Made by a program: the position numbers and the translations under genes. The notes beneath the pieces are model-generated. The model was given only the letters and a program-made list of their open reading frames with translations. It did no database searches and was not told the origin of the DNA. 64,000 nucleotides of DNA. Source: Squalus acanthias. Taxonomy: Eukaryota. Location of the stretch: the NCBI GenBank assembly GCA_030390025.1, contig JASTWF010000326.1, positions 372,001 through 436,000 on the forward strand, written 5' to 3'. Below, piece after piece: positions 2,384 through 60,797 of the stretch (position 1 is the first letter of the stretch; each line of letters opens with the position of its first letter).

Positions 2384-3126
2384 GGCCCAGAAATTGATCT
2401 CGCTCTGTTCCCGCGGGGGTAAGCCTTCCCCGCGATGTCTCACCTCGCTTATGCTTTTTCTGATCCAGCTCGCACGAACTTGATGTTCCAGACATCAGCT
2501 GTGCTGGGCTTGCGTATCCCAGCGGCGCAGTTAATTCGTGCGAGCTGTGGGATCACGTGACTCAGTTAGAGCCAATGGCAGCACACCATCTTCCATTCAT
2601 AAGTCTCACAGCATGGCTGTGAGACTTATGAATCTTACACCCCCCCAAAATAACAGCTAAACCTCAATTAAATTAAAAAAAAAAACCATCACATTAATAA
2701 AATAAGTATAGTTAATTAAATTAACCATTTTAAATAAAAAATTAAATTTTTGAAAAAATTTTAAATCTTTTAAAAAGTTATAAAAATAAACTTACCTGTC
2801 TTTAAAGTCTATAAAAAAGATATACCTGTAAAAAAAATTCAAAAAAATACTTAATTCACTACTTACCTTCTTAAAAGCGGGTCTTACTCCTCCTTTTTAC
2901 ATTTCCAAAATCTTCCCTACTTACCTGCGCGTCCAAAGCATGAAGTGCACAGCGTGCGCGCAGCCTGTAGCGCGCACGCGATGCACTCAGGCCCCGCCCC
3001 CTTTTCGGAAGAGCAACTGCCGGTTTTCAGCGCATGCGCAGGGCATGCAGAAAACCGGCAATTGGAGTGGAAATACGCGAGAGTATGCAGTGCGTACTCT
3101 CGCGTCCCGGGATCAATTTTCGGCCC
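2384..3126. mobile_element. Harbinger-type MITE
   Basis: TIRs GGCCCAGAAATTGATC / GATCAATTTTCGGCCC, ATT TSD on both sides. AT-rich core and internal palindromes. Related to 26112-26878. Confidence 0.8.
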
Positions 3127-18407: not shown

Positions 18408-18569
18408 TTGACTTTGTAATGTAATATTGGAATGAATCATTTATAAATTATGTTTTGAATGCTTGTTTTGTGGTGGCTTTCATTTCCGCATTGTGGCCAA
18501 GAGGACTCTGTGATGTTCTGTGACAGAGGGATGATAAGGTGGGGAAGTGTTGAACAACAGGGATCTGGG

Positions 18570-19735: not shown

Positions 19736-20362
19736 AGTGGGAGCAAGTGGAGTAGTCAAAGGCTTTCCAGTAGCAGTCAATGCATTCCCAACCTCCAGCA
19801 GCACTCCCTGCACACTTTAATGTTATAAATGTCTTCCAGCAAGCCAGTATTCATATAAACTCTGCAAGACCCAGTACAAGAGAAATGATCAACTTACCAG
19901 CAAGTAGGATGTATCACGTTAAATTGCGCTGGTGAGGGGATCCCTCGTGCAGCTGAACACATGTTCAGCTGTTCATGTTTAGGAGAGGGCATTGAATGGA
20001 GCGGCGATGATGAAAACGGCAGGTCGTACGTCATGATCTGCCTACTCTGCATACTGCCGGCGCACGCACATCTCATCCACGTTATTGCCCTCACCAAGAT
20101 GGTGACCAGCGCGGGCGTGCTGGAAGTTGGCGGAAGCGAAGCGGCCGCCATTTTTTTCTCCAAACCGGGCTTAACTGCCGGTGCTAAGGTGCAGAATTTC
20201 GCAGCCAGAGTATCTCAGTGGGGAGGCTTAACATACACGCTGTAAGGATTTTTATACAGTGCAAAAATGAACTTTGCGTATTTTATGAAGTAATTTTGTT
20301 CATGGAAATGTATGCTTATTAAAGATGGTATAATTCAACAAACTCACTAATAATGCCCTAAT

Positions 20363-20572: not shown

Positions 20573-21071
20573 TGTTAGAAACTAGGGGTGCCTAAAAATG
20601 TATATGGCTACGTGAATAATACTGTGTTTAAATGATTGTATGTTTCTGCTCAAGACAAGTAAGGGGTTAATGTATAAGTTATGTTTTACTGGCGACTGTT
20701 TAGGTTTTGTTTTCCTGAAAGCTCGTATTAGAATTTGAGACTAAGAGGGCGCTAACGGGGCGCAAAGCAACTAGCGCCCGGGTGCGGCGATGTTTGCGCC
20801 GCTCGTGAAATTGACCAGGCATTTTGTGGCGGTGTTAAACACAACCACCACGATCTCCTGCGCCTGCAGATCGTGACGTCAGTCAAGTGTGCAACGCCCC
20901 GGTAGAGCCCCGGACCAGATATTGAGTGGCGCCCCCTGCCTTTCCGCCTGTCGCTAGCAACAACAGGTTGAGGGGAACGTTTTGCAGTCAGGAAGGGACT
21001 GGGGGAGTGCTATTTAAAGGCTGCCGCTTCCTGCCTTTTTTTGTCAGCGCCATTTTTGCACCACGCATTCT

Positions 21072-21102
<31 letters not shown>

Positions 21103-22714
21103 CTGGAGAGATTCAACGCTGTGTGAAGGAGTTTTGGGTACTGAGCAGCACTTTACAGGTTCATTTTGATTTGACCTTCCTTGCATCGATTTAGAAGAGA
21201 CTATGGGGGCTGCACTCTGAGCTCTTTCCCTGGACCTCTCCATTGTTCTTGTCAGCAGAATTGATGTACAGGTCTCTCCAGGCCGAGATTCAAGGCTGCA
21301 ATGAGCAGGGTGTGGCTGGAGAGCAAGATCGACCCTCCCCTTTAAGAACTGGCTGGCGCCAGTGTGTCTGTGTTCCATTGCTAACTGACGTTACCTGAGC
21401 TTCGCCAGCGCTCTGAGGTAGCGCCTTGCTCCTCGGCGTTAGCGTCTTAAGAGAGGTGTGTAGCGCCTGATTTAGTGCTCCAATCACCTCCAGGGGCAAT
21501 AGAGGCCAAGTTTGCAGTCGGAGGCGATAATTAGCGCCAGGCGCTAAACTTTGCGCCTGGCCGGTAATTGCGCCCCAAACAGGGTGATACCAGATTTCTC
21601 CCCCAATATGTCTTCAGTTAGTTAGTTTAGGCATAAACATTCCACACAGGGGCCCACAGGATGGCCTTGCCTGCAATATCTGTTGTTTGTAAGTTAGGGT
21701 TTTGCCTTTGTTAATGTATCTTTAATTTGGCCAATGAAGATCCAACCTATGTTTCTTCCATTATTACCAATAACCATATTATAATGCTTAGGTAGAATTT
21801 AGAGTTTGTTGAGCAGAACTACTTGTGAAGATAATTAAAAGTTAATTAGTATAGAAAGACATAGAATAAAAGGAATTTAGGGGAGGTTAAGGTATCCATC
21901 TCAGGATGGAGCAGTTTGCTCGATGAAAGTGAGATAATGACCAGCTGAAGCGGGACAGCTCTGGCTTGGGCCTCATGATTGAACGGGGACAAGGTCAGGC
22001 CTAGTACCAATTGTACCAGGGAGGATGGGGACAAAGATAGGATGAATTTCAATGGAGGAACCTTCAAAATGTAAAAACAAGAAAGATAAATTGGCTGAGA
22101 TCATGAGACCCCTATGAGGGAGGGCTTTCATCCAATAATTGAGACAAAGAACTAGACGCTGCATTGGGTACTGAGGTTTTGGGGGAACCTCTATAGGTTA
22201 AATGGTCTTGTCAATAATTTAGCCTCAGGCCCACCCCTAAAAAGAGAATAAAAATAACACCCTGAGGGCTTGCCCACACAGACGGTGGAGGGGAGAGCCA
22301 AGCAAAAGTTGGGCTGGTCGAACGCTCTTTCGACAATGATCCCATACCCATGTGGGAGTACCTTCACCACACGGACTGCAGCGGTTCAAGTAGGCGGCTC
22401 ACCACCACCTTCTCAAGGGCAACTAGGGATGGGCAATAGATGCTGGCCTTGCCAGAGACGCCCAGATCCCATAAGTGAATAAAAAAAAACTTGGAGGTTC
22501 TAGATGAGAGGAAGAGAGGCTGCAAGCCAGAGAACTGTTCACGCACACCAGCCGTCTGTCCGATCGGGTCCGGTACCAGCTGCTTGTCACGGTCGTATGT
22601 TTTTGCTGTATTACTAGTGTGTTATATTCCATCCTAAACTCCGATTAAACACAATATACCCACCATATTGGTTTGCACTCGATCCTGTTTACTAGAGATA
22701 CATGAATCTCTACA
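20573..22714 (+). mobile_element. Probable solo LTR with nested insertions
   Basis: TGTTAGA...TCTACA ends; GGAC/GGGC flanks (imperfect 4-bp TSD); ATTAAA near the 3' end. Contains 20738-21604 and a LINE tail at about 22360-22480. Confidence 0.45.
20738..21604 (+). mobile_element. Non-autonomous Harbinger derivative, left tip missing
   Basis: Collinear with 48974-49865 and with both ends of 35135-39297. Right TIR ...ATTTCTCCCCC. Confidence 0.9.
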
Positions 22715-26111: not shown

Positions 26112-26878
26112 GGGCCAGAAATTCGGCTTTCCGGCTTCCTGCGGGTGCAAGCATCGCGCGCGTACTTACCTACCGCGCCTGCAGTTGTGCTTTGGGCCCA
26201 CGAGGACTTCAGGTCCTGGGCCTCCTGCAGCTGCCGGCACACAGTGCTTGCGTATCCCAGGGGCGCAGTTAGTTCGAAGCGTCCCCTGGGATCACGTGGG
26301 CCATGGAGAGCCAATCCTAACAGGGCATTTTCATTCATAGATTTGACAGGAAGACTTGTCAAATCTATGAATGGAGATCGGCCCCAAAACCACACTTAAA
26401 CTTCAAATACATTTTTAAAAAAACATCACATTTTTAAAATAACTATAAGTTACATAAATTAACTACTTTAAACAAAAATTTTAAATTTTTGAAAAAAATA
26501 ATTATACTTTTTAACCGCGCTAAAAATAAACTTAACTTTCTTTAAAGTATCTAAAAAAGATAAACCTATTGAAAAAATGTTTAAATTGTAATTAATTAAC
26601 CACTTACCTTGTTAAAAACAGGCCTTGCACCTCCTTTTTAAAAGTGCAGCTTCTTCATACTTACCCTCCCGGAGAAACCTGAAAAAAAAACTTGAAGTTC
26701 GCTGCGTTCGCGCTGCCTCTCCCGCGCATGTGTTCGACTTCTGAACCCCTCCCTTCAGGGTAACGGAAGTTCCGGATTCCCGCACATGCGCAGTGCATGC
26801 AGGAAACCGACACTTCAGGTGGCCTTACGGGTGAGTACACAGCACGTACTCACCCGACAACAGCCGAATTTCTGGCCC
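26112..26878. mobile_element. Harbinger-type MITE
   Basis: Perfect 17-bp TIR GGGCCAGAAATTCGGCT; ACT TSD. Confidence 0.9.
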
Positions 26879-33205: not shown

Positions 33206-35651
33206 TTGCCAATGCTGGGAGGATGGGAAATTGTCTACCCTGCTGAGTCGGTGGAGGAGAGATGATTCCGGGGGTGTGGTGGGGGCGAGGGGGTCGTGGA
33301 TAGGAGCTTATATTGGCCAGCAGTGGCCCACGCCTTTTTTGTGGGCCAAGGACTCTCGCGCTTTCTGGCCACACCAAAAAACAAAAAATTCCTGAGGTGT
33401 TTTGTGAGCGGCCCTAAGTGGTTCTTTTAAGGGCTGTTTGCTGGGCTACTCCCCACCTGATGCAAATGGGCGGAGCATGCGCGGTACAATTGCTGCTCAT
33501 TTGTACCTTGAAATTGCAATTGGATTCCTACGTGCTTCATAGGCCCCCAATTTGCACGTTACAAGTAGCCTCCGACCTGAAACAGGCAGGTGTAAATTGT
33601 CCAAGTGCAAACAGGGCTGAAAGTAATCCGATGCAATCTTCGGGCCCCGACCGCCCTGTTTACACAGGCAGAAAGAGTTAAAATCGTTGCCAGTGAACCT
33701 TCTATCTTTTGTCCCTTTACCTCCAGTTTTGATCACGTCTTTAATTAGGATCATGTAATAGCTGCTTTAGAAATTAGGTCCTAACCTATTTAAATCATCC
33801 TGTGTCATCATCTGGCACAACTATTTTAATATGAAGCAAGAAATGGAAAGGTTGGTGTGAAAAAAGGATTATCTTCATTTATTATACATTTTACAAGCAT
33901 TCGTTATGTTCTTTTGCTCAGCTGAAAGAATTACACCAGCTACCAAATAAAGATCCGTTTCATTTTCTGCAAATTAGCTTGCAATTACTGCCTTGTTTGG
34001 AACAAATCCTTGTATCTCATCTCTATCGCTCCATGAAATATTTTTAATCAATGATGTGAACGAGAAACATGCTTCTTATAACCATAAAAAATTGTGGTTA
34101 TTTAGAATGCTCATTATCTCATTGCTAATCCATCCACAGATATTAAGCAACTTCAGGGGCAATAGATTTGGAGGAAAATCAACACCACATTCACAAGAGG
34201 TCAGGATTCAATTAATTCAGCACAAAATCATCCACAGATTCTATTGGATGTCATCCCGTTAAAATCAAACTAAAGTTGCTTATATTTCATGTTGGAGATT
34301 GAAGGACCAGATAGATTTTCGAGTTGGATTTAGATTTGTCTGTTAGAGATCACAGTGACTGATCTGTATTTAAGAGGTTAGCCAGGCTTACTTGCTGGCC
34401 AATTCTATTATACAAGGTATAGAGGTAAAAGCTTACTACGTTACAAATCCTCGTAAAGGGAAGAGTGATGAAACACTGAAGATTTCTTTTTACCAAATTT
34501 CTCTGAATGTTTTCTGTTTTAAAAAGGCGATGTATCATGCTTGCCTTTCCTCTCAGGTAAGAAGTAGCAGGGGGGTTTTCCAATGGGCAGCCTTTTGGTG
34601 TGAGGGCTTTCAGCATAGGCACCAACATATCTTCATACATCAGCCAAGTTGTGATTTTTCATGTTTCAGCCTAGACAGTATTGGTAGCCTATTCAACCAC
34701 ACAGGCATTAAAGCTGAGCTTGATCCTGTCGTCACCCAGACATGTGTGTATAAACACAAACACGCACACGTACACTTTCCAGTAAAGTCACCGAATAGCA
34801 ATTAGGTGCAGGAGTCCTCTCTGATTTCTTTCTTTCCTAGCTCACTGGCACTGAGGCTAATTGTAACACATTGGGAAGTAATTTGCAGCCCCTACGGGCA
34901 CGTATGAGGTGCACACGCGACCATAGTGGCTGGGCAAGTTCTGGGTTTAGACATGCGCAAAAACCCGGAACTTGCGATCTGTCAAGAATTTTCTTGACAG
35001 GTCCAACGCATCCCCAGGAAAAGGGCATCTGCGGGCGGAGAGTTGGGCTATTTGCCCAACTTCTGCCCAGCGAATGCCCGTGAAATCCTTATGCCTGATA
35101 AAAGCAGGCGTAAGGCCTGCTTTTACCAGCGTAAGGGGGAAAAATTCAGTTGGTTGCGCCTCCCGTTAGTGCCTTAAGAGGGCGCTAATGGGGCGCAAAT
35201 CAACTAGCGCCCGGGCGCAGAGATGTTTGCACCGCTCGCGAAATTAACTAGACATTTTGCGGCGGCGCTAAACAATACCGCCCCGATCTCCTGCGCACGC
35301 AGATCTTGATGTCATACGAGGGTGCAACACCCTTGTGGCGCCCCGGAGCGGAAATTGAGTGGCGCCCCCATCCTTTCCGCCTGGTGCAACCAACGACAGG
35401 AAGACTGGAATGCTCCCCAGTCACTGTGGGGCTGGGGGGTGGGTGGCGCTATTTAAAGGGGGCCTCTTCCTGTCTTTCTCTGTGGTAGACATTTTTGCAC
35501 CACTCGTTCTGAGAGAGAGAGAGAGATTCGGAGAGAGAGAAAGAGAAACTTCTGCATTGAGTCAACGCTGTGTGAGGTAGTTTTGGCTACTGATCATAAC
35601 TTTGCAGGTACTTTGGTTTTTGACCTTCATAACTTTGATTGCCAAGAGACT

Positions 35652-36812
35652 ATGGGGGCTGCACTGATTGGGGGCATTGTCCTGCGCCTGCAGAATCGGA
35701 GGACACAGAGACGCAGAGAGAGAGTGGCAATCATGGCCAGACGGAGGAGGGCCAACAGGCCTCTGTACAGGAGAACTTACCCTCCCAGGGTATATCGCCA
35801 ACAATTCTCATATATTAATATGTCTGAGGAGCAGTGTTTGCGAAGGCTGCGCTTCAGCAAGGAGGTAGTCACTGAGCTCTGCCATCTGCTGCAGCCAGAT
35901 CTGCAGCCTCAACTGAGGTCCAGGACGTCTCTGTCGGTGGCAGTGAAGATCACAGTGGCTCTGAACTTTTATGCCACTGGCTCATTTCAATCAGCTACTG
36001 GGGACATCCCCAATATCTCCCAGTTTGCGGTGCTTTGCTGCATCCGTCAGGTCACAAATGCCATCTATAAAAGGAGACGAGAGTACATCTCTTTCCCCAT
36101 GACCCCGGACAAGCAGCAAGAATGCGCAATGGGCTTTGCTAGGATAGCGGGCTTCCCCATGGTGCAGGGCGCCATTGACTGCACGCATGTGGCTTTGCGT
36201 GCTCCGCATGAGAATGCCGAGGATTTCCGCAACAGAAAGGGGTTCCATTCCTTAAACGTTCAGTTGGTCTGTGACCACAGACAGCTGATACTCGCTGTCA
36301 ATGCCCACTATCCTGGCAGCTGCCATGATGCATTCATCCTGCGCCAGACTACTGTGGCAGAACTTTTCCAGACACCGCATCAGCCAGTTGGTTGGCTTCT
36401 CGGGGACAAGGGATATCCACTGAGCACCTGGCTGATGACACCGCTCCGTACGCCCAACACCCCTGCTGAGCTGCGGTACAACGAGAGCCATCTTGCTACC
36501 AGAAACATCGTTGAGCACACAATCGGCGTGCTCAAGCAATGGTTCCGCTGTCTGGAACATTCTGGATGAGACCTGCAGTACTCGCCTGAGCGAGTCTCCC
36601 ACTTCGTAGTTGTGTGCTGCATGCTGCATAACCTGGCAATCCTCAGGACCCAGCCAATGCCACCAGGCCTTGGAGCACCACCAGAGGAGGAGGAGGAAGA
36701 GGAGGAGGAAGAGGAGGAGGATGATCAGCAGCAGCACCAAGGCGGGAGGGAGGCCCACAATGCAGAAACTGGAAGGGCCGTCCATCAACGGCTGATAGCA
36801 AGCCGCTTCTAG
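35652..36812 (+). pseudogene. Harbinger DDE transposase (about 386 codons) with one in-frame TGA at 36567-36569
   Basis: Catalytic motifs AIDCTH, LGDKGY and IVEHTIG are intact. The same frame continues after the stop (SG*DLQYSP...CCMLHNL, acidic tail). TATA-like TATTTAAA at about 35449. Confidence 0.93.
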
Positions 36813-37123
36813 GCCCCTGCTGAGGAAATGGCTTCTGCCATTGAGAACAACATGAATGAAAGCAACCCGCAACCCCTAAGCCGGCCAAGGCAACAATGAT
36901 TCCAAAGACCAAACATGTACATTTTGAATACAAAAACTTATTTATTTTACAAACTCTGTGTGTGTCATTTCTTTATGACAAACTAATAGAAAGAAACACA
37001 AAAAAACAGTCATTAACATAACTGGTTCTCACAACCTGGAAATAATGTCCAAAACACTAAACAAACGTTTGACCACGAACCTCGACCTTTAATAAAAAAA
37101 TGACCAACATTTTGTCACGCCTC

Positions 37124-38936
37124 CTACTTTTTGCCCTTCGAGGGTGATCTCCTTCCCTTGCGCACTTCCCCCCTTCCCACCCTACTGCTCCTCCGTAATG
37201 GGACCCCAGTGGCTGCAGCAAGGCTGCTGGAAGGCTGCTGATTGTCAGAACCTGAGATTGCAGATGCCCTTGAAGGACGGCCTCGACCAGATCTGGGTCT
37301 GGAGGGCCCGGCTGCAGACTGCACCAACTCTGCATGGGCGGCAGCAGTCTGTCCTACAGGCGGTGGCAAGTGCAGTGGAGAAGTGACAGTGGTGACAGCA
37401 GGAATGCTGTCATCTTGAGAGAGGACAGCAACTCCCTGCTTGACCGACACACTGGCACTCCCACAGGGCAGCACTTCAGCATCCGGAGCAATCTGCTGGA
37501 ACACAGATTGCTGGCCTGCTGCGGTGAGAGCCCCGGGGAAATGTGTCCGAACCAGCGAGGATGGCAGCAGTCAGTGCTCGCGTGGCCTCAATGTGAGTCT
37601 GCATGAGAGCTGTCAGAGATGGGGTCATGGCAGCAAGTGACTGAATTGCAGCACTAAACATTTGCGTGGCATCCGCCTGTGCTACAGCGAAGTGCTCCAC
37701 ACACCTTGCCAGTGATTCAATGCATTCGGGCACCCTTCCCACTGCACCCATGAGCTCAATGTGCATGTCTACCGCCTAGGTGTTCATTTCAGCGATCAGC
37801 CGATCCTCCTCTGCGTCCAGTGCAGTAGGACTCGCTGGCATACACTTCCTCCGGGGAGAAGGCCCCCGAGATTCCCTAACCCCATCACGTTGCTGCAGCC
37901 CGCTGGGTCCTGGAGTTCACCCTCATCAGACCCTTCCCCCCTGCTCCCCTCCAGGGAAGGCGTGTTCCTAGTGTGGGCATGGGCTTCCTCGGGAGAGGGT
38001 GGCACTGATGCTCCGCCTTCATCTTCCTCCTCACCTGCAGCTTCACTTTCACTGGCAGCTTGAGGGCCCGTCTCCTCAGCTGGTGAATCACCATCTGAAA
38101 GCAGGGAGGTACAAGAGTGGCTTTAGCGTGAGGACAGGGGGGCAGTAAGGGAGGAATGAGTGCAGCGATTTAGTAACTTGGATTGAAAGTGCCAAAAGCT
38201 GGTGTTGTGAGGGACAAGTGGAAGGAGAGAGGACAAAAAGGTGATGACCATACCATTGCTGTCCAGAACGGGGTCGGTGTCTCCAGTGGCGACGGGACCG
38301 ATCACCCAGCTTGCCACAATCCTGTGGACGCGCGCCTCAAGATCGCTGAGGGGTTGCTGCTGAAGCCGCCCTCCACCCGTCCGTTGCTGCTGTTTCCTAT
38401 TATGAGATAGCTTGGCCTGCAAGAAAAAGGATGGCGTCTGAGTAAATATACAGCCATGGTCTTGCCTGATGTGCCTCCCATAGGTGAATAGCCCTTACGT
38501 ATGCAGCCATGGTCTTGCCTGATGTGCCTCCCATAGGTGAATAGCCCTTACTGTATGCAAAGTGTGGAATGTGCATGTGTGTTTTATGAGAGGGCCATAG
38601 GTGTTGGATGAGTGTTGTGCATTGGGGTTTTAAGACTCTCTAGCCATAGAGTGAGGTTGAGATGGAGGGATGGAGAGGTATTGAAAAAAAGCCACTCACC
38701 CTGACGACCTGAGTGAGGTCGTTGAACTTTTTTCGACATTGAGTATGGGTCCTGGGCACCATGCTCCTGCAGGAGACGCCCTGAGCCACCTCCCTCCACA
38801 CTCTTCTGTACCCGCGCGGCAAAGGCCTCCTGCCACTCTCAGGGAAGAGTATAGATTTTCTGCACGCCACCGCGCCAACCAGAGCATTCAAGGCCCGCTC
38901 GCTGAAGCGCTGAGCTCGTTCTCTCACCCTCTCCAT
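37124..38936 (-). pseudogene. Harbinger Myb/SANT-like protein; exons 38936-38700, 38416-38254, 38094-37124
   Basis: MERVRERAQRFSERALNALV...VWREVA...QCRKKFNDL. GT-AG introns in phase 0 and phase 1. Exon 3 needs about two frameshifts to reach its end. Confidence 0.85.
38451..38551. repeat. 53-bp tandem duplication in Myb intron 1
   Basis: CAGCCATGGTCTTGCCTGATGTGCCTCCCATAGGTGAATAGCCCTTAC occurs twice. Confidence 0.95.
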
Positions 38937-41455
38937 AGTCCTTGGGTGGAAGATTTAGGCACAGGTCTCGCCAGGCAGAGATTCAAGGCTCCAATGAGCA
39001 GGGTGTGGCTGGAGTGCAAGATCGACCCTCCCCTTTAAGAACTGTCCGGCGCCAGTGTGTCTGTGTTCCATCGCTAACTGACATCACCTGCACTGCGCCC
39101 GCGCTCTGAGTTAGCGCCTCGCTCCTCGGTCTTTGCGCCTTAAGACAGATGTGTAGCGCCTGATTTAGCGCTCCAATCACCTCCAGGGGCGATAAAAGTC
39201 AAGTTTGCAGTCGGAGGCGATAATTAGCGCCAGGCGCTAATCTTTGCGCCCGGCTGATAATTGCGCCCCAAATGGGGCGGTACTGAATTTCTCCCCCTAA
39301 GAGTTTTAAAAAAACAGAAAAATAAAATTTTATCAATAATTTATACATTTAAAAACTTGTTAAATAAGGTAAGTTTATTTTAGCCCCTTTAAAACATGAG
39401 TAAATTTATCTTTCAAAAATAATTTTTTTGTTTTAAATATTAAATATTAAATGCCATTTTAATTAATTTTAAATGTGATTTTTTAAAAATTTATTTGAAG
39501 TGCAGAGGTATTTTTTGAGGTATTCCCATTCATGCTTATGGGGTTTCCGTACATTCTTTTATTGGTTGGGCCGGTCCATGTGTTCCCGGGGCGCTTGCGA
39601 ACCGCCTGAGCTCCTGAGATACGTGGGCCTCTTCCCGCGAGTACCCAGAGAGGCCCAGGAGCGCGAATCTCCATACCTTCCGGACCACCAGGTACGCGGG
39701 CATTTTACTTGCGGGTCGGAGGCATTTCCCGGTGGGAAGCCTCTGACCGTAAATTCAAGGCCAATAACTTTTAACCCAATGGAGGTCAGCTAAATTGGCA
39801 CAGACCAAGCATTGGACCAGAAACATTAACAGAAACAAAACAGGATGATAGTGAATTTGTCTTCCTGGAATCTTAGACAGGAAGAGGTAAAAAGAGAGAG
39901 CACTCTACACTGAAAATTCTCTGCGCTGTATTGTCCTTCAACACTGAATGACCATCTGTTTTTTACAGCCCAGCACTCATCGAGAGAACAAAAATTGTTT
40001 ATTTGTCTACAGCAGGCCACTGTTAGTCATTCTTCATCAAGGAATGTTTCAGTCTAATACATTCCTGATGATATTTGTTCTCAGATTCTCTGTGTAATTC
40101 CTTCTTGCCCTTTACTGTGGCTTATTGTATTTTCAATTTACCTTTGTAGTAACTGTGTTGTTGTTGGGGTTTTGATAATAATTTCTTATTCCTGTGAGGC
40201 ATATAAGGGGAAATAAGAAAAGACAGAGAAATTAAACGCTCCAAACCTTTGTAACAAACAAATTCTAGTAAAGAAAACAAATCACACTTCAGTACACAAA
40301 TATCTAATGAAGAACTTTAAATTGTAAAAAAAAGTACCCTGAACAATTGAAGTCGCTCTGAAGACTACTCATTCTATTGATTAGTGTCTCTTGAGGAAAA
40401 CAGCCATAGGATGCCCCAAGTTGATTAAATTTACAAAAAACCTCAAATGCAGAAAGTACGCAACTGGTCACTCAGCATCTTAAAGACAAAGGAAGGTAAA
40501 CTTTGAAGAAGAGTTGCACCATGAACGTTCGTCTTTCTTTCTTAACAAGTCCAGTTGATCTGGGTGGTGCAAAATTATGGTTAGGTCTCAATTTTTTGTA
40601 GGAGTAGCCTATTGTAAGAGATCCTCTGAAATGGATTACCTTATAGTTTGCAAAGCTATTAAAGAAATAAAGCAAAAATTAGTACTTCAGAGAAGCAGAA
40701 AGCATAGGCTCACTCTAAGTTCATGCCATTACAATGATTTCAGTGCCGAGTCTATCGGCGAGGACTGCAACAGCGCACCCTGTGGAGGAGCAGGGTATTT
40801 CCGTCAGCAATTTCTGGATTTCCGCATTTAACTGCGCTAGAAGTTGCTGTCAGATTTACCCTGTTATAACGGCAAGCACTGATAGCCTCGCCGTTATTAT
40901 TACAGCAAAATCTGGGCCTATGTTATGTAGCATCAAAAGTAATTTTGTGCAAACATGTTAACCAGTGGACAAAAAATAGCACACAGAGAAAATTAAACCC
41001 ATTACTTTATAGATTTCTCTCTAGATTATTGGTACAGGCCTCTGGATTACTAGTCCAGCAACATAACCACCATACTACCATACCTGAACTATTAAAATAT
41101 TGAAGGTAGTGCTATGTGCATGTACACACTGAATTATGTATTTCCATTATCGACAAACAGTATTCACAAACAGTTTGTAAGTATTGGTTTTATCTTTTTT
41201 ACATTTAATATGTTTGTAGAAGAACTATGATAATACAAATCAAAGTATTTTCTAAGTTTTATTTGTCTGATAAGAATTAGTAAATTGATTGCAATATCTT
41301 AATGTATATATAGGTTTGTTGAATTTTTCCTTTCAATATTGCGCTATATTAAGCCCTGTAGAGGGTATTAATATAAAATAAATCTTGATTAAACTACATT
41401 GCCTCCCGAGCCCCAAGCAAAAGTAGATGGTTGGTTCAAGGGCATTTGTAAGCTG

Positions 41456-42298
41456 TGTAAGACTTTCTCTTACTACTGTTCAGACCTCGAGAATTACAAA
41501 TTAGCTTAACAATGACAGACAAGGATGTGATCAATAAAATTGATCTTTATTCACACTATAGTTCAAAATTCGAGTGTATAGAAGAACCTTTGGCAATAAA
41601 TTCAAAGAACTCTCGGCAATAAATATGCCTGCAATTTATTGATTCAAACTTACATAAAAGTACCCCCTTAACAATTCAAAAGTACATAAAAGTACCCCCT
41701 TTAACAATATCTAAGCTTATGTCTGACTTTCATACATACTCCTTCATCTCTGGGTGATCGGTCAAGGGAAATTGTAAGTCAAAACATAAACCGGTCAGCT
41801 TTCTCATCTCATTCTCCATCCTGCTCTCTCTTCAGTGTTCTTCTGGTTCCTTCGGTGTTCCTTCTTCGGAATCTTGAAAACTCCCATCCCTGGGTTATCG
41901 TAAATTATTCTCTGCCTCCCTCTGACAGGTCAGTTTTAGTCCAAACCTTCCCTGATTGGAATTCCTTCCGCATGACACGTTCCTGTTCCTGTGAGATGTA
42001 TGGGGGCGAGACTTCCTTGTCAATCATGTTCTCCCTTCTTGTCCAGGTGGCCTCTCAAACAAAGAACACATACTGACCACCATTTTGTGTCTTCACAAAC
42101 AAAGAACACATACTGACCACCATTTTGTGTCTTCACAAACAAAGAACACATACTGACCACCATTTTGTGTCTTCACAAACAAAGAACACATGCTGATTTC
42201 TTACATTTTAAATCCGTCCGTTATCATCTTACAATTCGTTCGCAATTTTGATCTCCATACGGTAGCAGCAGTTTTATTACACTTTTCAGAATCTTACA
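41456..42298 (-). mobile_element. Solo LTR
   Basis: TGTAAGA...TCTTACA terminal inverted ends and exact 4-bp TSD GCTG. Orientation is inferred from the position of the tandem repeat and TTTATT. Confidence 0.75.
42056..42191. repeat. 40-bp tandem repeat, about 3.4 identical copies, inside the LTR
   Basis: Unit CAAACAAAGAACACATACTGACCACCATTTTGTGTCTTCA. Confidence 0.95.
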
Positions 42299-42389
42299 GC
42301 TGCTATAACATTTGTAGAAGTGAGAAAACCTTATCTGTTTCATTGAGCGAAGAGATTATGCAGTATCACCTTAAATATCTCCACTACAA

Positions 42390-42830
42390 ACATATGAAAA
42401 ATGACAGACAGGAAAAGACCTATTGTTCCACCCAGCCTGTCTTACATAATTGCAAAGTCTTGTGCATCACAATGCATACACTCCCTACCCCACCCAGAAG
42501 CCACACAATCTCCTGGGAGAGGCGGAAAAGCCAATTAGGGAGAAAAATCTGGAAAATTCCTCTCCGACCCCCTTAAGCGATCATTACTAGTCCAGGAGAC
42601 CACTCTGACTGTGATTAATGTTATACACCTCTTGTACGAAGTGATTTCCGCACCAGCCAGAAACAGGTCCAGCTCTCGCTTAAAGGAATTCAGAGAATCA
42701 GCATTCGCCGCACGAGCTGGCAGCCTGTTCCACTGGTCCACTATTCGCTGGGAAAAGAACCATTTCCGAACATCTAACATAGTTCTGCCTTTACTTAACT
42801 GGAGATTGTGACCCATGGTCCTCATTATGT
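42390..42830 (-). mobile_element. CR1-type LINE 3' fragment
   Basis: RTMGHNLQL...RKWFFSQRIVDQWNRLP...NSFKRELDLFL. Confidence 0.8.
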
Positions 42831-42844
42831 TGTTTCAGAATTGA

Positions 42845-43390
42845 TCAGGGAGAGAACAAAAGACAAAGGTCTGTGTGGAGGGCAGGAGTGATTAAATGAC
42901 AAAAGTGGTGATGGTGCAAGGCAAAAGGAGGTGAAAATGGGATAAAGTAAAGAAGCAAAAGGTGGGTCCAGAGGAGGTGTAAATGGTTGAAGCAGAATAG
43001 CAGAGGGGGAGGGAAGCATGAAAAATCTGGCTCCCATGGCCTGTAAATGTAACGGAATAAAAGCATGTTGACCCCGTGGGATGCGGACCTTGTAACAATA
43101 GGGGAAACCCACCCCAAGCACCAGCCCACACCTCCTCCACTCCTGGTGGCTCTGGTGCAGCTATCCTCCATTACCAGCACCTGCTGTCCTTTTCCCTTTG
43201 TTCTTTCCCTGCCCCTTTTCCCTGACTCTGTACTTGCTTAAAAGCTGCTCATCTCTTCCAGTACTGATGGAAGGTCATTGACCTGAAACGTTAACTCTGT
43301 ATCTTACTGTGCAGACGCTGCCTGACCTGCTGAGTGATTCCACATTTTCTGTTTATATTTCAGATTTCCAGCATCCGCAGTATTTTTCTT
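42845..43390. mobile_element. Penelope-like terminal fragments
   Basis: GACCTGAAACGTTAACTCTG...GCTGCCTGACCTGCTGAGT...TTCAGATTTCCAGCATCCGCAGTA resembles a Penelope-associated tail as I recall it. No ORF evidence. Confidence 0.5.
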
Positions 43391-44192
43391 TTTTTTTTGT
43401 ATGTATTGGCAGTATTCTTGTAATCTACATCTTGATCAAAGAAAATGCCTTCCCTTAAAAATCTGGCAATTAAAAACATTTTCGAATTTAAGCAACAAAG
43501 AATATTGAGTTTTCATAAAGTTTTGAAAAGCATATCCTTATTTTACTGTCACCTCCATAAAGGTATACGGTGTGAGGACAAATTTGTTGAGCCTCACAGT
43601 TAGGCCTGAGGGATGGCAGATACTGTGATTGTAATTATTAAACCACCTGTGCCAAAGCTGTATCCTCCAGGCAGAATTATGTTGTACAAGAAGAACTCTC
43701 CATTCACAACATGCATAATTTATTATGTGTCAAATTACTGGGAGCGCATTAAGTATGAAGCAGTGAATAGCAGAATATAATGATGCATTCATTGTCCTCA
43801 CAAGTTAACATCAGTTACCCATAATTCCCCATCATAAGCAATACAACATAATAATTTTAGTCTATTATTCTGCCTTGACAAGTCAATTGATGCAGACTGC
43901 TTCTCGTGTTTAATACATTACGAGCTAAATTTTGTTCCAATTTGGTTTGGGGTCTTTTGAGGAATTTTGTATCTCACTCTTCTAAGATATGTGCCATATT
44001 TATTTTTTAGTAATGAATGTATCTTTAATGTTTACAAATCAATAATTTATCTGCAAACTGTTCCATTCTGAAAAAAATGTTTATAATTAAAAAAATAATT
44101 CTTTCACCTAAGTAAAGTAACTGATTTTGGATTTGTAAATTTTAAAATAAAGTAACAGCTATTGGGAGTACAGACACGTCAGAAAGAAGAAT

Positions 44193-46116
44193 GGGTCAGA
44201 TTTTTCTCTCAAAATAAAGGTGAGGCTAATGGTGCTCCCTGTTATTTATGCGCAAATGGTACAGCAACTTCAGGCGAGGGGCAGATGTGCGGTTAAACTT
44301 TTCTTTTGTCCCTTTTTTCTCTTTCTCAATCCAATCTTTCATTCCCTCTCATTGGCCGCGATTTTGCCAGCGCTCAGAGGGCAGGTTCGGAGGCGGGTCA
44401 GCTGTTAAATTCAAAATGATTGACGGCGGGTTGGGAACCCGCCGCGAACCCACCTCCAGTATCCAAAGTGTCGGGTTTGCGACTTCAGAACACCAAGCAG
44501 CAGGAGAGGCATTTAAGGTAGTTAACTACTTGTTAACTACTATTTTGACAGCCTTTTTCTATTTTCCCGCATTTTTAATGGGGTTCCCGTCGTTCGGAGA
44601 TCACGTCAGGTAAGTGTGTCGGGGTCTCTATGTCTCCCCATTGCTGTGAATAGGTGACAGCTGCAAAAGTTGTATGAAAGCTTCCATTTCACAGCTGGTC
44701 ACTTTCCAATGTCAGAAGCTTGAGCCTTCAGGACTTGGAAGACACTTTGGAATTGTATGCAGTTTGGAAGTGTTTGGAGTAAACTCTCTATCCACTGTCA
44801 CCTCCTTGGAGCAAGCTCTCTCATCATTGACAGATCACTTCTGCCATCTCAACTTCAGCTGCCATCTATTCCAGCAACATCAATGCCCTTGAAAAAAATC
44901 TCTCCTTGGTCCTCTGAATCCCTATACGAACAGCCCCAACACCAACATCACCAGGCATACCAACATCACCATCAACAACACCAACCTTCTCTGCAATCAC
45001 CTGATGCTGCACAGGACACAGGGCATCAGCACCTGGCCACATTGCTGCCCGGGAGGCCAGTGATGGCATCACCATGGCCAGATTTACTTCACTTGACACT
45101 GTACACCCTGGCTGCCACATGATGTGTCAGGTTGGCACCACCCCACACCAGCACCACAAAACATTCCTACAATGACCAAGCTGTTCCTTTCACACTCATC
45201 ACCATTGCGGGGGATACCTTTCTGTCTCACCATTTACTGCAACTCACAAAGACACTTCCAAAGGTGAACACAGATCTGTACAATAAGGCAAAGTGTTGTA
45301 AATAAAGATTTCAATGTTTGACAACACATTAACAGAAAATTTACATGAACATTGCATAAGACACCCAAGTGCCTACCCTTGTGTATTGTTAGTTGGTATG
45401 ATTGGACTAGGATGAGGGTGAGTGTGAGGGGTGGCTAGTGAGATGAGGAAGTAATAATGTAGATAGAGAGGGATGGGTGGAGGTGCAAGGTATGTTGGTG
45501 TGAGTAAGGATGTGCAGGAGTAGGGTAGGGAAGGCTGAGTGATGGAGATGTGATAAGTGGCACGGCAGGATGAGGTTGAGTGGCTTTGCAGTAATATTTC
45601 ATGATCTACTGAGATCATTGAAAGGTTTGCGCCACTGCAGTCAGGTCCTCCTGACAACATCCCTGCTTTTGCCCTCCTGTGCAATGTGCAACCAGGCTGC
45701 GTTGGTGTCCTGGGGAGGTCTCTTCCGCCCATGCAAAGGGAAGTGAACCTCTCTGCGTGCTTTGACTCCCTCCATAAGCATATGGAGGGAGTTATGGGAG
45801 AGCCTGGGTGCAGCCCTGTGCCTTTGTGCAGTGCTTGTCAGTGTTTGCAGCACCTCAATGCTGTAGAACACTGACAGCACAACTGTCAAAATTAATGTGG
45901 CCATGGTCCCTTTAAGGAAATCGGCTGGTGACGCATCATCAAATGATGTCATCAGACCCGCTTATTATTCATTGGCCAGGAACCCCGCAGGGCGGGCTTA
46001 ACATGGCCAATCTACAGAAAATCCTTTTCACAGAGCGGTTGCAGCCGGGAGCGGGACCGGAACCCACTAACCAGCTCTCCCGCCGCCATCCCGCCTCCGC
46101 TGGGAAAATCCAGCCC
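44193..46116. mobile_element. Internally deleted Harbinger element retaining Myb exon 1 (minus, about 45590-45830)
   Basis: RHRAAPRLSHNSLHMLMEGV...AAWLHIAQE. Right TIR AAAATCCAGCCC. The left part is homologous to 52966-53690; the left boundary is tentative. Confidence 0.7.
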
Positions 46117-46359
46117 ATTATTTCTGTACCTGATTTGACACTGAATTTAGCCAAACCAATTTATACTTTCTTCTCAGTCCTTGCGCTGTTTATTTACAAT
46201 CCTTCAATCTGATTGGTTAAAGAGATACACTCTTGCTTGTCCTGTTCACTCTGGTCCCAGATGCCCAGTTTCTTTCACTGTGCCGCTATCTGCTCACACT
46301 TTCAGCAACTTGAAAAGCCTAAATGTGCAAAGAAAGTCTAACTAACAGCAGTTTTTAAA

Positions 46360-47288
46360 AATTCATTCCTGGGATGTGGGCGTCGCTGGCAAGGCCAGCA
46401 TTTATTGCCCATCCCTAATTGCCCTTGAGAAGGTGGTGGTGAGCCGCCTTCTTGAACTGCTGCAGTCCGTGTGGTGAAGGTACTCCCACAGTGCTGTTAG
46501 GGAAGGAGTTCCAGGATTTTGACCCAGCGACGATGAAGAAACGGCAATATATTTCCAAGTCAGGATGGTGTGTGACTTGGAGGGGAAATTGCAGGTGATG
46601 GTGTTCCCATGCACCTGCAGCCCTTGTCCTTCTAGGTGGTAGAGGTCGTGGGTTTGGGACATGCTGCTGAAAAAGCCTTGGCGAGTTGCTGCAGTGCATC
46701 TTGTAGATGGTACACACTGCAGCCACGGTGTACCGGTGGTGGAGGGAGTGAATGTTTAAGGTGATGGATGTGGTGCCAATCAAGCAGGCTGCTTTGTTCT
46801 GGATGGCGTCGAGCTTCTTGAGTGTTGATGGAGCTGCACTCATCCAGGCAAGTGGAGAGTATTCCATCACACTCCTGACTTGTGCCTTGTAGATGGTGGA
46901 AAGGCTTTGGGGAGTCAGCAGGTGAGTCACTCGCCGCAGAATACACAACCTCTGACCTGCTCTTGTCGCCACAGTATTTATGTGGCTGGTCCAGTTAAGT
47001 TTCTGGTCAATAGTGACGCCCCCCCCACCCCCCACCACCCCCCGCAGGATGTTGATGGTGGGGGATTCGATGCTGGTAAGGCTGTTGAATGTCAAGATGT
47101 GGTTAGACTCTCTCTTATTGGAGATGTTCATTGCCTGGCACTTGTATGGTGCAAATGTTACTTGCCACTTATCAGCCCAAGCCTGAATGTTGTCCAGTTG
47201 TACTGCATGTGGGCACGAACTGCTTCATTATCTGAGGAGTTACGAATGGAACTGAACACTGTGCAAGCATCAGCGAACATCCCCACTA
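46360..47288 (-). mobile_element. CR1-group LINE (second family) 3' fragment
   Basis: ORF 46415-47131 reads GVTIDQKLNWTSHI...YKAQVRSVMEYSPLAW...WNSFP. Confidence 0.85.
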
Positions 47289-47349
47289 GAGGCTATTGTA
47301 GTATTGACATTCTTCCCGTAGATTCCGCTAGCACATATACGGAATACAT

Positions 47350-48040
47350 GGCCCAGAAATTCCGTTCGCAGGCCTCCCGCGGGCGGAGGGCTGCGATCTT
47401 GAAAAATCTGCGCCTGGACTGGAGGGCTCCCGGGAGGCATAGAGTTCCGTTGCTGGGCCTCTCCAAACTACAAGTGCGCAGGGCCCACGTATCCCAGAGG
47501 TGCAGGCGGTTTGCAGCATCCCTGGGATCACGTGGGCCATGGGGAGCCAATCAGAGAAGGGAATCTCCCTTCATACATTTGACAGGAAGACCTGTCAAAT
47601 CTATGAATAGAGATCACCCCCAAAACATAGTAAAACTTAAACAAAAATTTTATTTCTTGAAAAAAATAATTAACGTTTTTAACAGGGCTAAAAATAAACT
47701 TACCTTTCTTTAAAATATTTTTAAATGATAAATCTGTGGAAATTTTATTTTTAACTTTCTTCTACTCTTATCCTGGTAAAAGCAGGCCTTATGCCTGCTT
47801 TTACCAGGCGCAAGAATTGTAAGTGTTTTCTGCGGGCGGAGGGTCTCCAAAAAACGGAATTTTCCACCCGCAGAGGCCCTGCTCCCGGGCGGGCGGAGGA
47901 TCTGTCAAGAGCTTTCTTGACAGATCGGAAATGCCGGTTTCCAGCGCATGCGCAGTGCATGCCTAAAACCGGCATTTCCGTTGGCCCTACGGGTGAGTAC
48001 ACAGCGCGTACACACCCCAAGGGAACGGAATTTCTGGCTC
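47350..48040. mobile_element. Harbinger-type MITE (empty-site relative)
   Basis: TIRs GGCCCAGAAATTCCGTTC / GAACGGAATTTCTGGCTC, CAT TSD. Inverted relative of 50450-51177. Confidence 0.9.
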
Positions 48041-48700
48041 CATATTACACTTACCAGCCACAATAAAGATTTCTGAAGCAGAGTGACATTACTTCAGTAC
48101 TTTTCCCCATTTTGACTCTTTTGGTCCAGTTTGGGAGTCATGAGAATTGGCAATGGGACTCCTGTTTTATAATTTATCTAAAAGTGTATGGATAGAAAGA
48201 TGGATTTAATTTCAAAGTGTAAGAATTCCAATGTACCAAATGAATACTGTAAACTCCAGAAGGATAAAACAAAGTGATTTACAAAGATATGGTATCATGC
48301 ATTTCACTTTAGCAAAAAAGGTAACAATATTTTCTCTCATTTTCATCAGACAATAAATAACTGCTTGCAATAAATTATTTAATCACAGATTATATTGAAC
48401 AAAATTGTGTTAACATTTCTGGCACTTTAAGGTTAGTCTCTGTGCTGTGGATAATGCAATTGGTGATGGATGCTGTCTAATTGCTTTTGCAACCACCCTC
48501 ATCTCTTTAAGTTGTATTTTCTCTCAACCAGTTAGCCTACATTCACTTATCTCTCTTATCTCTGTCAGGCTCTTCTTCTTAAAGAGAGAGAAAAAAGAAT
48601 TGAAGATGACTTTCATTCAAGCACCTTCCAAAAAATTCTCATTGGCTCAACGGCAACATTGAGAACAAGTCACATCATAAATGGAGCCTAATGAATTATT

Positions 48701-50365
48701 GGGCCATAATTTGCAGCCCCTACGGTTGCATACGAGGTGTGTACGCGCTCATAAGGGCAGCGCAAGTTCCGGGTTTTCGTGCGCAAAGCGCATGTGCAAA
48801 AACTTGGAACTTGCGATCTGTAAAGAATTTTCTTGACAGATCCTCCGCATTCTCGGGAAAAGGGCATCTGCGGGTGGAGAGTTGAGCTATTTGCCCAACT
48901 TCTGCCCAGTGAATGCCCGTGAAATTCTTATGCCTGGTAAAAGTAGGCGTAAGGCCTGCTTTTACCAGTGTAAGGGGGAAAAATTCGGTTGATTAGCGCC
49001 TCCCGTTAGCACCCTAGGAGGGCGCTAACGGGGCTCAAAGCAACCAGCGCCCGGGCGCGGCGATGTTTGCGTCACTCGTGAAATTGACCAGACATTTTGC
49101 GACGGCACTAATCACTACCGCCATGATCTCCTGCGCCTGCAGATCATGACATCAGTCGAGTGTGCAACGCCCTGGTAGCGCCCCGCGCCGGATATTGAGT
49201 GGCGGCCCCTGCCTTTCCGCCTGCCGCTGGCAACGACAGGTAGAGGGGAATGTTTTGCGGTCGGGAAGGGACTGGGGGAGCGCTATTTAAAGGCGACCAC
49301 TTCCTGCCTTTTTTTGTCAGTGACAGTTTTGCACCACGCATTCTGAGAGAGAGAGAGAGACTTCTGGAGAGATTCAACGCTGCGTGAAGGAGTTTTGGGT
49401 ACTGAGCAGCACTTTGCAGGTTCATTTTGATTTGACCTTCCTTGCATCGATTTAGAAGAGACTCGGGGGGCTGCACTCTGACCTCTTTCCCTGGGCCTCT
49501 CCATTGTTCTTTCCAGCAGAATTGATGTACAGGTCTCTCCAGGCCGAGATTCAAGGCTACAATGAGCAGGGTGTGGCTGGAGAGCAAGATCAACCCTCCC
49601 CTTTAAGAACTGGCCGGCACCATTGAGTCTGTGTTCCATTGCTAACTGACATCACATGAGCTTCGCCAGCGCTCTGAGGTAGTGCCTCGCTCCTCGGCGT
49701 TAGCGCCTTAATGGAGGTGTGTAGCGCCTGATTTAGCGCTCCAATCACCTCCAGGGGCGATAGAAGCCAAGATTGCAGTCGGAGGCAATAATTAGCGCCA
49801 GGCGCTAAACTTTGCGCCCGGCCGATAATTGCGCCCCAAACGGGGCGATACCGAATTTCTCCCCCTAAGAGTTTAAAAAAACATAAAAATAAAATGTTTT
49901 CAATCATTTATACATTAAAAACCCTGCGCAATAAGGTAACTTTATTTTTAGCCCTGTTAAAATATGTAAAAAAAATAAATTAAGTTTTTGTTTTAAATAT
50001 TTAATTAAATGCCATTTTAATTAATTTTAAATATGTAATTTAAAAAAAATGTATTTGATGTGTAGATGTATCTTTTGGGGTATTCCCATTCATGATTATG
50101 GGGTTTCTGTACATAAGGAATCCCCACAAACATGAATGGGGATTCCTTTCTTTTATAGGTTGGGCCGGCCCATGTGATCCCAGGGACACTTGTGAACCGC
50201 CTGCGACCCTGGGATGCATGGATACATGGGCCTCTTCCCGTGGGTACCCGGAGAGGCCCAGGACTGCGAGTCTCCGTACTGCCTGGACCACCAGGTATGC
50301 GGGCATTTTATTTGCGGATTGGAGGCATTTCCCCGCGGGAAGCCTCCGACCGCAAATTCAGGGCC
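48701..50365. mobile_element. Host MITE split by the element at 48974-49865
   Basis: TIRs GGGCCATAATTTGCAG / CCGCAAATTCAGGGCC, ATT TSD. Confidence 0.85.
48974..49865 (+). mobile_element. Complete non-autonomous Harbinger derivative (892 bp)
   Basis: TIRs GGGGGAAAAATTCGGT / ACCGAATTTCTCCCCC, TAA TSD. Consists of the two ends of a 35135-39297-like element. Confidence 0.95.
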
Positions 50366-50449
50366 ATTATATTGTTTTATAGTAGAAATTATTTGTTCTT
50401 TGGGAGCTAACTGATTAATAATTGAAGCTGGTGAGCAGTTGTATATAAT

Positions 50450-51177
50450 GGTGCCGAAATTCCAATCCCTACGGGTGTGTACGCGCTGTATACTCACCCG
50501 TAGGGACATTGGAAATGCCGGTTTCAGGCATGCACTGAGCATGCGCTGGAAACTGGCATTTCTGATCTGTCAAGAAAGCTCTTGACAGATCCTCTGGCTG
50601 CCCGGGAGAAGGGCCTCTGCGGGTGGAGAGTTCCGTTTTTTGGAGACCCTCCGCCCGCAGAAAACACTTACAATTCTTGCGCCTGGTAAAAGCTGGCGTA
50701 AGGCTTGCTTTTACCGGGATAAGAGTTGAAAAAAGTTTTTAAAAAAAATTTCCACTGATTTATCATTTAAAAATACTTTAAAGAAAGGTAAGTTTATTTT
50801 TAGCCCCGTTAAAAACTTGAATTCTTTTTTTCAAAAAATAAATTTTTTGTTTAAAATACTTAATTTATTGTAATTTAAAGTCATTTAAAAAATGTGATGG
50901 CTTTTTAAAAATGTATTTAAAGTTTTACTATGTTTTGGGGGTGATCTCTATTCATATATTTGACAGGTCTTCCTGTCAAATGTATGAAGGGAGATTTCCT
51001 TCTCTGATTGGCTCCCCATGACCCACGTGATCCCAGAGACGCTGCGAACCGCCTGCGCCTCTGGGATACGTGGGCCCTGCGCACCGGCAGTTTGGAGAGG
51101 CCCAGCAACGGAACTCTACGCCTCCCGGGAGCCCTCCGGTCTTGGCGCAGGAGGCCTGCGATCGGAATTTCTGGGCC
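50450..51177. mobile_element. Harbinger-type MITE (empty-site relative)
   Basis: Reverse-complement homologue of 47350-48040 with TIR-like ends. TSD is not preserved. Confidence 0.85.
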
Positions 51178-58580: not shown

Positions 58581-58584
58581 GGAA

Positions 58585-60329: not shown

Positions 60330-60797
60330 ACACTTAAGCAGCACTTTGCAGGTTCATTTTGATTTGCCATTCCTTGTATCGATTTAGCAGAGACTGTGGG
60401 AGCTGCACTCTGAGCTCTTTGCCTGGTACTCTCCATTGTTCTTTCCAGCACATTTGATGTGCAAGTCTCTCCAGGCCGAGATTCAAGGCTGCAATGAACA
60501 GGATGTGGATGGAAAGCAAGATTAACCATCCCCTTTAAGAACTGGTTCGTGCCATTGTGTGTGTGTTCCATTGCTGACTGACATTACATGAGCTTCGCCA
60601 GCGCGCTGAGTTAGCGCCTCACTCCTTGGCCTTTGCACCTTAAGACAGGTGTGCAGCGCCTGCTTTAGCGCTCCACTCACCTCCCGGGGCGGTAAAAGTG
60701 AAGTTTCCAGTCAGTGCCGATAATTAGCGCCAGGCGCTAATATTTGCGTCCAGACGATATTTGCGCCCCAAATGGGGCGCGACCTAATTTCTACCCC
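60330..60797 (+). mobile_element. Right half of the non-autonomous Harbinger derivative
   Basis: Collinear with 49400-49865; ends AATTTCTACCCC followed by TTA. Confidence 0.88.

Follow-up and report, generated by a model that had tools for sequence, protein, structure and literature searches.

Two Harbinger elements lying at the same base of two related MITEs best fit two separate cut-and-paste insertions, in which members of one Harbinger family used the same preferred spot of an older and abundant MITE (probability about 0.55). This reading fits best because the MITE shell of the first nested pair looks older than its passenger and because the passenger of the second groups with free copies of its family. 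The recurrent site is most likely a spot resembling the landing motif that the inner family uses genome-wide. The behaviour of this family at the shared TAA is most likely an instance of the target preference already known for Harbinger elements, rather than a new homing system. All coordinates refer to the window, the whole stretch of 64,000 nucleotides analysed.

Inner Harbinger elements

Inner A (35135..39297, plus strand; 4,163 bp) was a full-length, two-gene Harbinger with 14–16-bp terminal inverted repeats (TIRs). Inner B (48974..49865, plus strand) was an 892-bp non-autonomous element flanked by the target-site duplication (TSD) TAA at 48971–48973 and 49866–49868. The first-pass annotation had described them as two different Harbinger elements. 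They instead belong to one family: both start with GGGGGAAAAATTC and end with GAATTTCTCCCCC, their 14-bp TIRs are one base apart at each end, and inner B derives by internal deletion from a sister lineage (subfamily) of inner A. The subterminal GGCGCTAA-like motifs (15 in inner A, 11 in inner B) were considered as a bait within the shell, but this was rejected, each shell part having 0–1 of them and the hairpin described below none.

The transposase ORF of inner A (35652..36812, plus strand; 386 codons) contained a DDE_Tnp_4 domain (PF13359, E = 3.8e-33), one premature stop at codon 306 and no frameshift. Nearly all of the 120 listed homologues were named HARBI1-like; the best of these listed matches, a shark HARBI1-like protein, was 72% identical, and the search gave no close relative for dating inner A. 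A Myb/SANT-like gene (37124..38935, minus strand; Myb_DNA-bind_5, PF13873, E = 4.2e-8) consisted of three predicted exons, the last with about two frameshifts and a stop in a three-frame translation read by eye. The HARBI1-type DDE transposase, the disrupted second ORF with its Myb/SANT domain, the 14-bp TIRs with one mismatch and the 3-bp TAA/TAA duplications of both elements are those of PIF/Harbinger transposons. The TIRs are shorter than the 25–50 bp given as usual for PIF/Harbinger in the available text of PMC9179366. Exact-pattern scans found the junction pattern in neither viral nor metagenome contigs, and the conserved inner motif in none of the metagenome, viral and prokaryote contigs. 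In 4/4 runs the inner element had a greater summed contig depth than the shell, depth here being no copy number. Among the 32 pieces listed out of 220,111, neither junction was bridged; the listing lacked B's own junction as well and is therefore uninformative.

Shell MITEs and the shared site

Shell A comprised a left part (34873..35131, plus strand), with a degenerate left TIR (GGGAAGTAATTTGC) and the TSD ATT at 34870–34872, and a right part (39301..39762, plus strand), which began with the half-site GAGTTTTA and was followed by the TSD AAT, one mismatch from the left copy. Its inner TAA duplication lay at 35132..35134 (plus strand) and 39298–39300. Shell B likewise had a left part (48701..48970, plus strand; TSD ATT) and a right part (49869..50365, plus strand; half-site GAGTTTAA; TSD ATT at 50366–50368). 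The end of shell A at 39762 and the start of shell B at 48701 are corrected bounds. Both shells had the features of Harbinger-type MITEs, namely short, family-like TIRs with ends GG(G/C)CC.GAA(A/T)TT, a 3-bp TSD and no coding capacity; the TSD (ATT, ACT or CAT) was intact in 4/6 copies of the shell family. The two shells were 15% different. The outer ends of shell B were fair (ATT/ATT, 3/14 left–right TIR mismatches), and those of shell A were damaged (ATT/AAT, 6/14 mismatches).

As first proposed, the two Harbingers sit in the same orientation at the identical TAA of one MITE subfamily, each flanked by TAA/TAA; the context, with GCCTGCTTTTACCAG(C/T)G before the left TAA and GAGTTT after the right one, was also as described in both copies. 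Since each shell offers 43–44 other TWA cores, the same base and orientation in both shells are not the product of uniform chance. Both window shells of this subfamily were filled (2/2).

The MITEs at 47350–48040 (minus strand) and 50450–51177 (plus strand) had been presented as empty versions of the site. They belong to another subfamily, 31–41% different from shells A and B and about 9% from each other, and have GGA-TAA-GAGT(A/T)G at the site. Two more empty MITEs, at 26112..26878 (minus strand; TSD ACT) and 2384..3126 (minus strand; TSD ATT), were of distant subfamilies. True empty sites of the A/B subfamily occurred in 4/4 read sets and were seen only in read contigs. The joint from 48970 to 49866 was found in at least 2, 3, 4 and 4 contigs of the four runs, and that from 48968 to 49866 in at least 2, 3, 4 and 3. 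Loose ends (CATAAGAGTTT) behind 48968 appeared in 86, 86 and 173 contigs of three runs among the matches listed; all joint and loose-end figures given here rest on the best 24 of 5,725 rows.

A hairpin with 15-bp arms (35095..35129 in shell A, without strand; 48934–48968 in shell B) ends 2 bp before the target TAA. Its fold was confirmed by shuffling: z ranged from −4.6 to −8.0 (−4.64 in shell A), and 0/200 shuffles folded as well for each of the four copies folded. The perfect arm originally quoted was a composite, with one mismatch in A and one in B.

Target preference of the inner family

Free copies of the 892-bp family were recovered at 20741..21604 (copy G) and 60337..60797 (copy H), both on the plus strand and with unrelated right flanks beginning with AAT and TTA, as had been noted. 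The left end of G and the left half of H were missing. Both shared the internal deletion junction of inner B, whose closest relative was G (4.5% at non-CpG sites); in H, 52/461 sites were private.

Among the matches listed, loose ends with mixed flanks occurred before 48974 in 304, 330, 425 and 402 contigs of the four runs (consensus ...AAAACAC), and behind 49865 in 206, 266, 394 and 593 contigs (consensus ATTGTCTTT). Flank agreement at both inner ends was 0.36–0.40 in 4/4 runs. The family thus showed an extended target preference in all four runs, AAACAC-(three A/T bases)-GTCTTT, a motif of consensus letters only whose core is biased since shell-like flanks were not counted as loose. With 2/4 window copies free and 206–593 unrelated-flank contigs per main listed row, most copies probably do not lie at one target, and the MITE is not a homing target of the inner family.

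In the shell, TAA followed by GAGTTT(T)A is a near-perfect half (5/6) of this quasi-palindromic motif. A half-site match as good was found at 0/44 other TWA cores in shell A, 1/43 in shell B and 64/2,405 in the window, and this was the sole such TWA site common to both shells. Several counts speak against separate insertions. The left half-site is poor (2/6), and the whole site fits the symmetrised motif at 7/12 positions, like 4.4% of the 11,256 A/T cores in the window and 8–10 other cores per shell. Both inner elements also face the way that fits the oriented consensus worse (5/12, hand count). Finding 2/4 window copies here needs about 1% or more of the family to reside at this site (P = 6e-4 at 1%, 0.014 at 5%), which by a rough reckoning exceeds what such a motif match would give. 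The half-site by itself may therefore be insufficient for so strong a hot spot.

Relative ages and relatedness

Shell A looks older than inner A, judging from 10% derived sites (41/412 polarised sites) and damaged TIRs in the shell versus about 2–4% decay in the passenger. The TIRs of shells A and B differed at 5/28 positions. In the transposase, 5/106 conserved residues, as defined from the first 60 of the 120 listed proteins, were changed; so few changes had a simulated P of 0.008 at 6% decay and arose in 0/1,000 simulations at 7.5%. The stop-codon count alone does not reject 9–10% decay (P = 0.11–0.14). CpG loss was greater in shell B (17/39) than in inner B (14/63; P = 0.028); against separate insertions, that of shell A (9/39) equalled that of inner A (15/62). 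For inner B, 110 informative sites supported grouping with free copy G and 32 grouping with inner A. This end-to-end grouping with free copies would support separate insertions.

Mechanism and alternative explanations

The first-pass annotation had suggested sequence- or structure-specific targeting of one transposon into another. Sequence-driven repeated insertion is the best reading, though not as one transposon targeting another, given the unrelated flanks in four runs. A complex of transposase and Myb protein would read the half-site, and the many shell copies offering it would form a hot spot. Shell A may have been hit by a full-length copy well after it had ceased to move, and shell B by a short copy of the sister subfamily. 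Harbinger elements are known to excise precisely in plants, and precise excision is documented for PIF/Harbinger in PMC2836001; it would regenerate the TAA and keep the spot open to reuse. Structure as the determinant gains no support in the window: its 4/4 other full-length shells carry a form of the hairpin, including the most stable (−20.9 kcal/mol), yet are empty, in a small sample from other subfamilies. Those empty shells weigh against independent insertions at a spot that a hairpin or cruciform, which stops 2 bp short of the TAA and substitutes for the poor left half-site, renders far hotter than its sequence predicts. We regard this as doubtful, even though the weak left half falls where a strong hairpin ends and the match in sequence seems by itself too weak for 2/4 copies; the sequence score, computed from consensus letters, may be understated, and cruciform extrusion is hypothetical.

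One ancestral nesting is somewhat less improbable, but still unlikely. A Harbinger would have entered the MITE once and the resulting four-TIR composite would have spread on its outer ends, with the short family arising by deletion inside the shell and inner copies jumping out to give the free copies and precisely restored empty shells. Because of the precise excision cited above, empty shells do not refute this. The 2/2 filled window shells, at one base and in one orientation, are consistent with it, as is the retention by shell B of its ATT/ATT duplication and fair TIRs. So too, and to the detriment of separate insertions, are the like pooled A–B distances (shell 76/623, 12%; inner 96/665, 14%; P = 0.25) and the similar private change in shell B (23/412) and inner B (33/734; P = 0.48). 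However, the TIRs of shell A are damaged though its passenger is young, two escapes are needed to account for G and H, and free flanks are numerous in the reads. The inner A–B divergence is moreover uneven (5' part 76/385, 3' part 20/280, P = 3e-6), as expected of separately active lineages, and 0/14 scorable B-private shell alleles were shared by shell A, at sites chosen as nearly private to B (best 40 of 555 rows). Local duplication or a hop of a single composite, with the inner element then replaced through gap repair or gene conversion, is quite improbable. The two composites share an orientation and are 9 kb apart, but inner B matches the free-copy type (that of G) over all of its aligned length, up to 14 bp from the right end, and shows no conversion junction. 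Repair after full excision would further require a shell-flanked template, and the shells are 15% apart. The swap by gap repair entertained earlier is accordingly unlikely. Segmental duplication was rejected, as similarity ends at the outer TSDs.

Comparison with known systems and implications

Tx1L in Tx1D, and Dada, are target-specific elements that reside in other repeats and are said to be largely confined to their target. They resemble the present case in inserting repeatedly at one position of a repeat with many copies, and differ in that unrelated flanks of the inner Harbinger family number in the hundreds per run. Zebrafish Harbinger3_DR is a two-gene PIF/Harbinger with a 15-bp target preference, whose flanks AAACAC and GTCTTT (PMC3016246, PMC2836001) match the read consensus of the inner family. 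Its core is CWG, as is the duplication by which the Harbinger3_DR-like NuwaI group is defined in the available text of PMC4482050, whereas the inner family has an A/T-rich core (TAA for the two nested copies, TTA for H) and the window shows TAA, TAA, TTA and AAT. The accessible parts of PMC3016246 and PMC2836001 mention no hot spot of Harbinger3_DR in another transposon. MITEs inserted in other MITEs are described from plants, with rice Ditto as a target and self-insertions of Castaway and Gaijin, and the multimers are ascribed to independent insertions (PMC5172404, available in part, summarising Jiang and Wessler 2001). Those are non-autonomous elements within non-autonomous ones; here, one passenger is a full-length two-gene element, the host is a vertebrate and a single base is used. 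A literature search listed no title dealing with Harbinger hot spots within MITEs of sharks; it covered titles and the starts of abstracts, with Repbase and most subscription papers outside its scope, and does not establish absence from print.

Less probably, the hairpin by the TAA, or four-TIR mobility of the filled shell, would make this base a true hot spot that holds at least 1% of a very large Harbinger family. If so, another Harbinger MITE would serve a vertebrate DNA transposon as safe harbour or vehicle, although the transposon also inserts at other places, and DNA structure or a composite life cycle would steer a vertebrate cut-and-paste transposon. If instead the favoured separate insertions hold, the two nested copies would be a further case of Harbinger target preference making hot spots in other repeats. 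They would carry the flanking motif of the zebrafish element over to a cartilaginous-fish family whose core is A/T, and would warn that copies nested at one base may lack a common ancestor.

Two Harbinger elements within one MITE family

Two filled copies of a MITE family (MITE length 730–770 bp) were found in the window. Shell A (34873–39762) carries a 4,163-bp Harbinger element, inner A, and shell B (48701–50365) carries an 892-bp element, inner B. Both passengers lie between two copies of TAA, with a 15-bp-arm hairpin before and GAGTTT after them, in identical orientation, as the first-pass annotation had claimed in placing two Harbinger elements at the identical TAA of one MITE family. Since the shells have short terminal inverted repeats (TIRs) resembling those of the passengers and a target site duplication (TSD) of 3 bp, they are Harbinger-type MITEs too. 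Two empty shells, C (47350–48040) and D (50450–51177), which are 91% alike and inverted, flank composite B (shell B with inner B) at about 660 and 85 bp; about 70 bp of family sequence is missing from C and about 30 bp from D.

Inner A contained a DDE_Tnp_4 transposase gene interrupted by a single premature stop; a Myb/SANT gene on the opposite strand carried one stop and about two frameshifts. The closest protein relatives of the transposase were HARBI1-like proteins of sharks and rays (≤72% identity), which points to a cartilaginous fish as host. The first intron of the Myb gene held a near-perfect tandem duplication of ~50 bp (about 38454–38552). Inner B retained just the beginnings of both genes and is a deletion derivative from a sister lineage of inner A; the TIRs of the two were identical except for one base per end. 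The TSD type of the family (TWA) places it in PIF/Harbinger rather than NuwaI, which PMC4482050 defines by a CWG TSD. PMC9179366 states that no Harbinger was found in elephant shark and urges a look at other cartilaginous fish.

The window held further related elements. An older two-gene Harbinger (about 16300–20210; Myb on the plus strand, transposase on the minus strand) was 68–72% like inner A; its Myb intron held a 37-bp tandem array (16753–17091). A third (left end, 54586–about 55570) was 74% like inner A over 80 bp, had a transposase start and was broken by a large palindrome (55576–58586; arms 1,205 bp, 98% identity, spacer 601 bp). Harbinger-like ends lay in the palindrome arms at 56398 and 57764; within the spacer, a decayed fragment (56998–57212) was similar to the right end of the inner family.

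Target choice of the passengers

Contigs of four public sequencing runs (three organism labels, four studies) were aligned to composite B at 80% likeness. The main rows of loose ends at the inner ends comprised 206–593 contigs each, with an agreement of 0.36–0.40 in the four runs, and therefore stem from many different loci. The passenger family is not MITE-specific. These varied flanks, together with two free copies in the window (20741–21604 and 60337–60797), uphold the earlier view that the 892-bp family moves on its own. The loose-end consensus read ...AAAACAC on the left and three A/T bases followed by GTCTTT on the right, its core letters being biased because flanks matching the shell do not count as loose. 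The flanks equal those of zebrafish Harbinger3_DR, whose target is given as AAACACCWGGTCTTT in PMC3016246, though the TSD type differs from the CWG of NuwaI. According to PMC2836001, extended target preference spans 15 bp in vertebrates and 9 bp in plants, and excision is usually perfect.

Scored against the symmetrised motif AAASAC-core-GTSTTT, the MITE site matched 5/6 in the right half and 2/6 in the left. In the window, 4.4% of 11,256 A/T cores reached ≥7/12, as did 8–10 other cores per shell. TWA cores whose half-site scored ≥5/6 were rarer (64 of 2,405 in the window; among other cores, 0/44 in shell A and 1/43 in shell B), so the motif can account for the choice of this base inside the shell. 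That two adjacent shells were both entered is less well accounted for. The probability of two of four family copies lying at one site was 6e-4 if 1% of the family is there and 0.014 at 5%, a point weakened, not removed, by the window having been chosen for this coincidence.

Empty sites and the hairpin

Shells C, D, E (26112–26878) and F (2384–3126) were full-length and empty, and differed by 31–50% from A and B, which differ from each other by 15%; these four represent the family and not the ancestral site. The alignment to composite B counts skipping joints and loose ends, not contigs spanning the filled junction. All four runs yielded joints skipping the passenger, the two main rows comprising 2–4 contigs each (among the 15 joint rows listed, of 763). 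In the three runs listing a row of loose ends CATAAGAGTTT behind the hairpin, it comprised 86, 86 and 173 contigs. The A/B subfamily thus has true empty sites. The first-pass annotation was right that empty sites exist, but the MITEs it named as such are too distant from A and B.

In shells A to D the hairpin gave a strong fold; E and F kept a diverged version of it. That it assisted insertion and so made a hot spot is quite doubtful: the most stable copy is among the four empty ones, and the hairpin is therefore not sufficient. The right half-sites of C (3/6) and D (4/6) were weaker than in the filled shells; E had a good right half-site, yet was empty. The homologous targets of E and F (26599–26620, 2780–2930) read AAG-GTAAGT, a consensus 5' splice donor, with three such motifs in F; the TAA at which the passengers of A and B sit falls within a drifted form of it.

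One nesting or two

We favour separate entry of the passengers into shells A and B through ordinary target choice (probability roughly 0.55). In rice, PMC5172404 describes MITEs nested in MITEs through independent events. A single nesting followed by spread as a composite seems unlikely, although the pooled A–B distances of shell and passenger are alike (12.2% and 14.4%, P 0.25), private change is similar in shell B and inner B (P 0.48), CpG loss is equal in shell A and inner A, and stop counts alone are compatible with an old inner A. Against it, inner B pairs with the free copy at 20741–21604 at 110 sites versus 32 with inner A, over the whole aligned length. The other free copy shares the deletion junction of the short family and is 11% private, so this family has long been present outside the shells. 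Passenger divergence between A and B was uneven along the length (P 3e-6). Shell A had 41/412 derived sites and damaged TIRs, whereas only 5/106 conserved residues were changed in the transposase of inner A (about 2–4% decay). Shell A shared none of 14 scorable B-private alleles (three more lie in a deletion of A), and more CpG was lost from shell B than from inner B (17/39 vs 14/63, P 0.028). These comparisons are pairwise clocks from two filled copies rather than trees, with a distant outgroup for polarising. Local duplication accompanied by a swap of the passenger is very improbable. PMC10288884 supports homologous repair at sites of excision, templated by matching chromosomes.

Shell A's own insertion site, TAACAC-ATT-AACTTT (34864–34872, 39763–39771), scored 9/12 on the target motif of the passengers, suggesting that shell and passenger have a target preference in common; the sites of the other five shells scored 2–7 of 12. 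The nesting coincidence is real, and is best read as a hot spot arising from a known kind of target preference.
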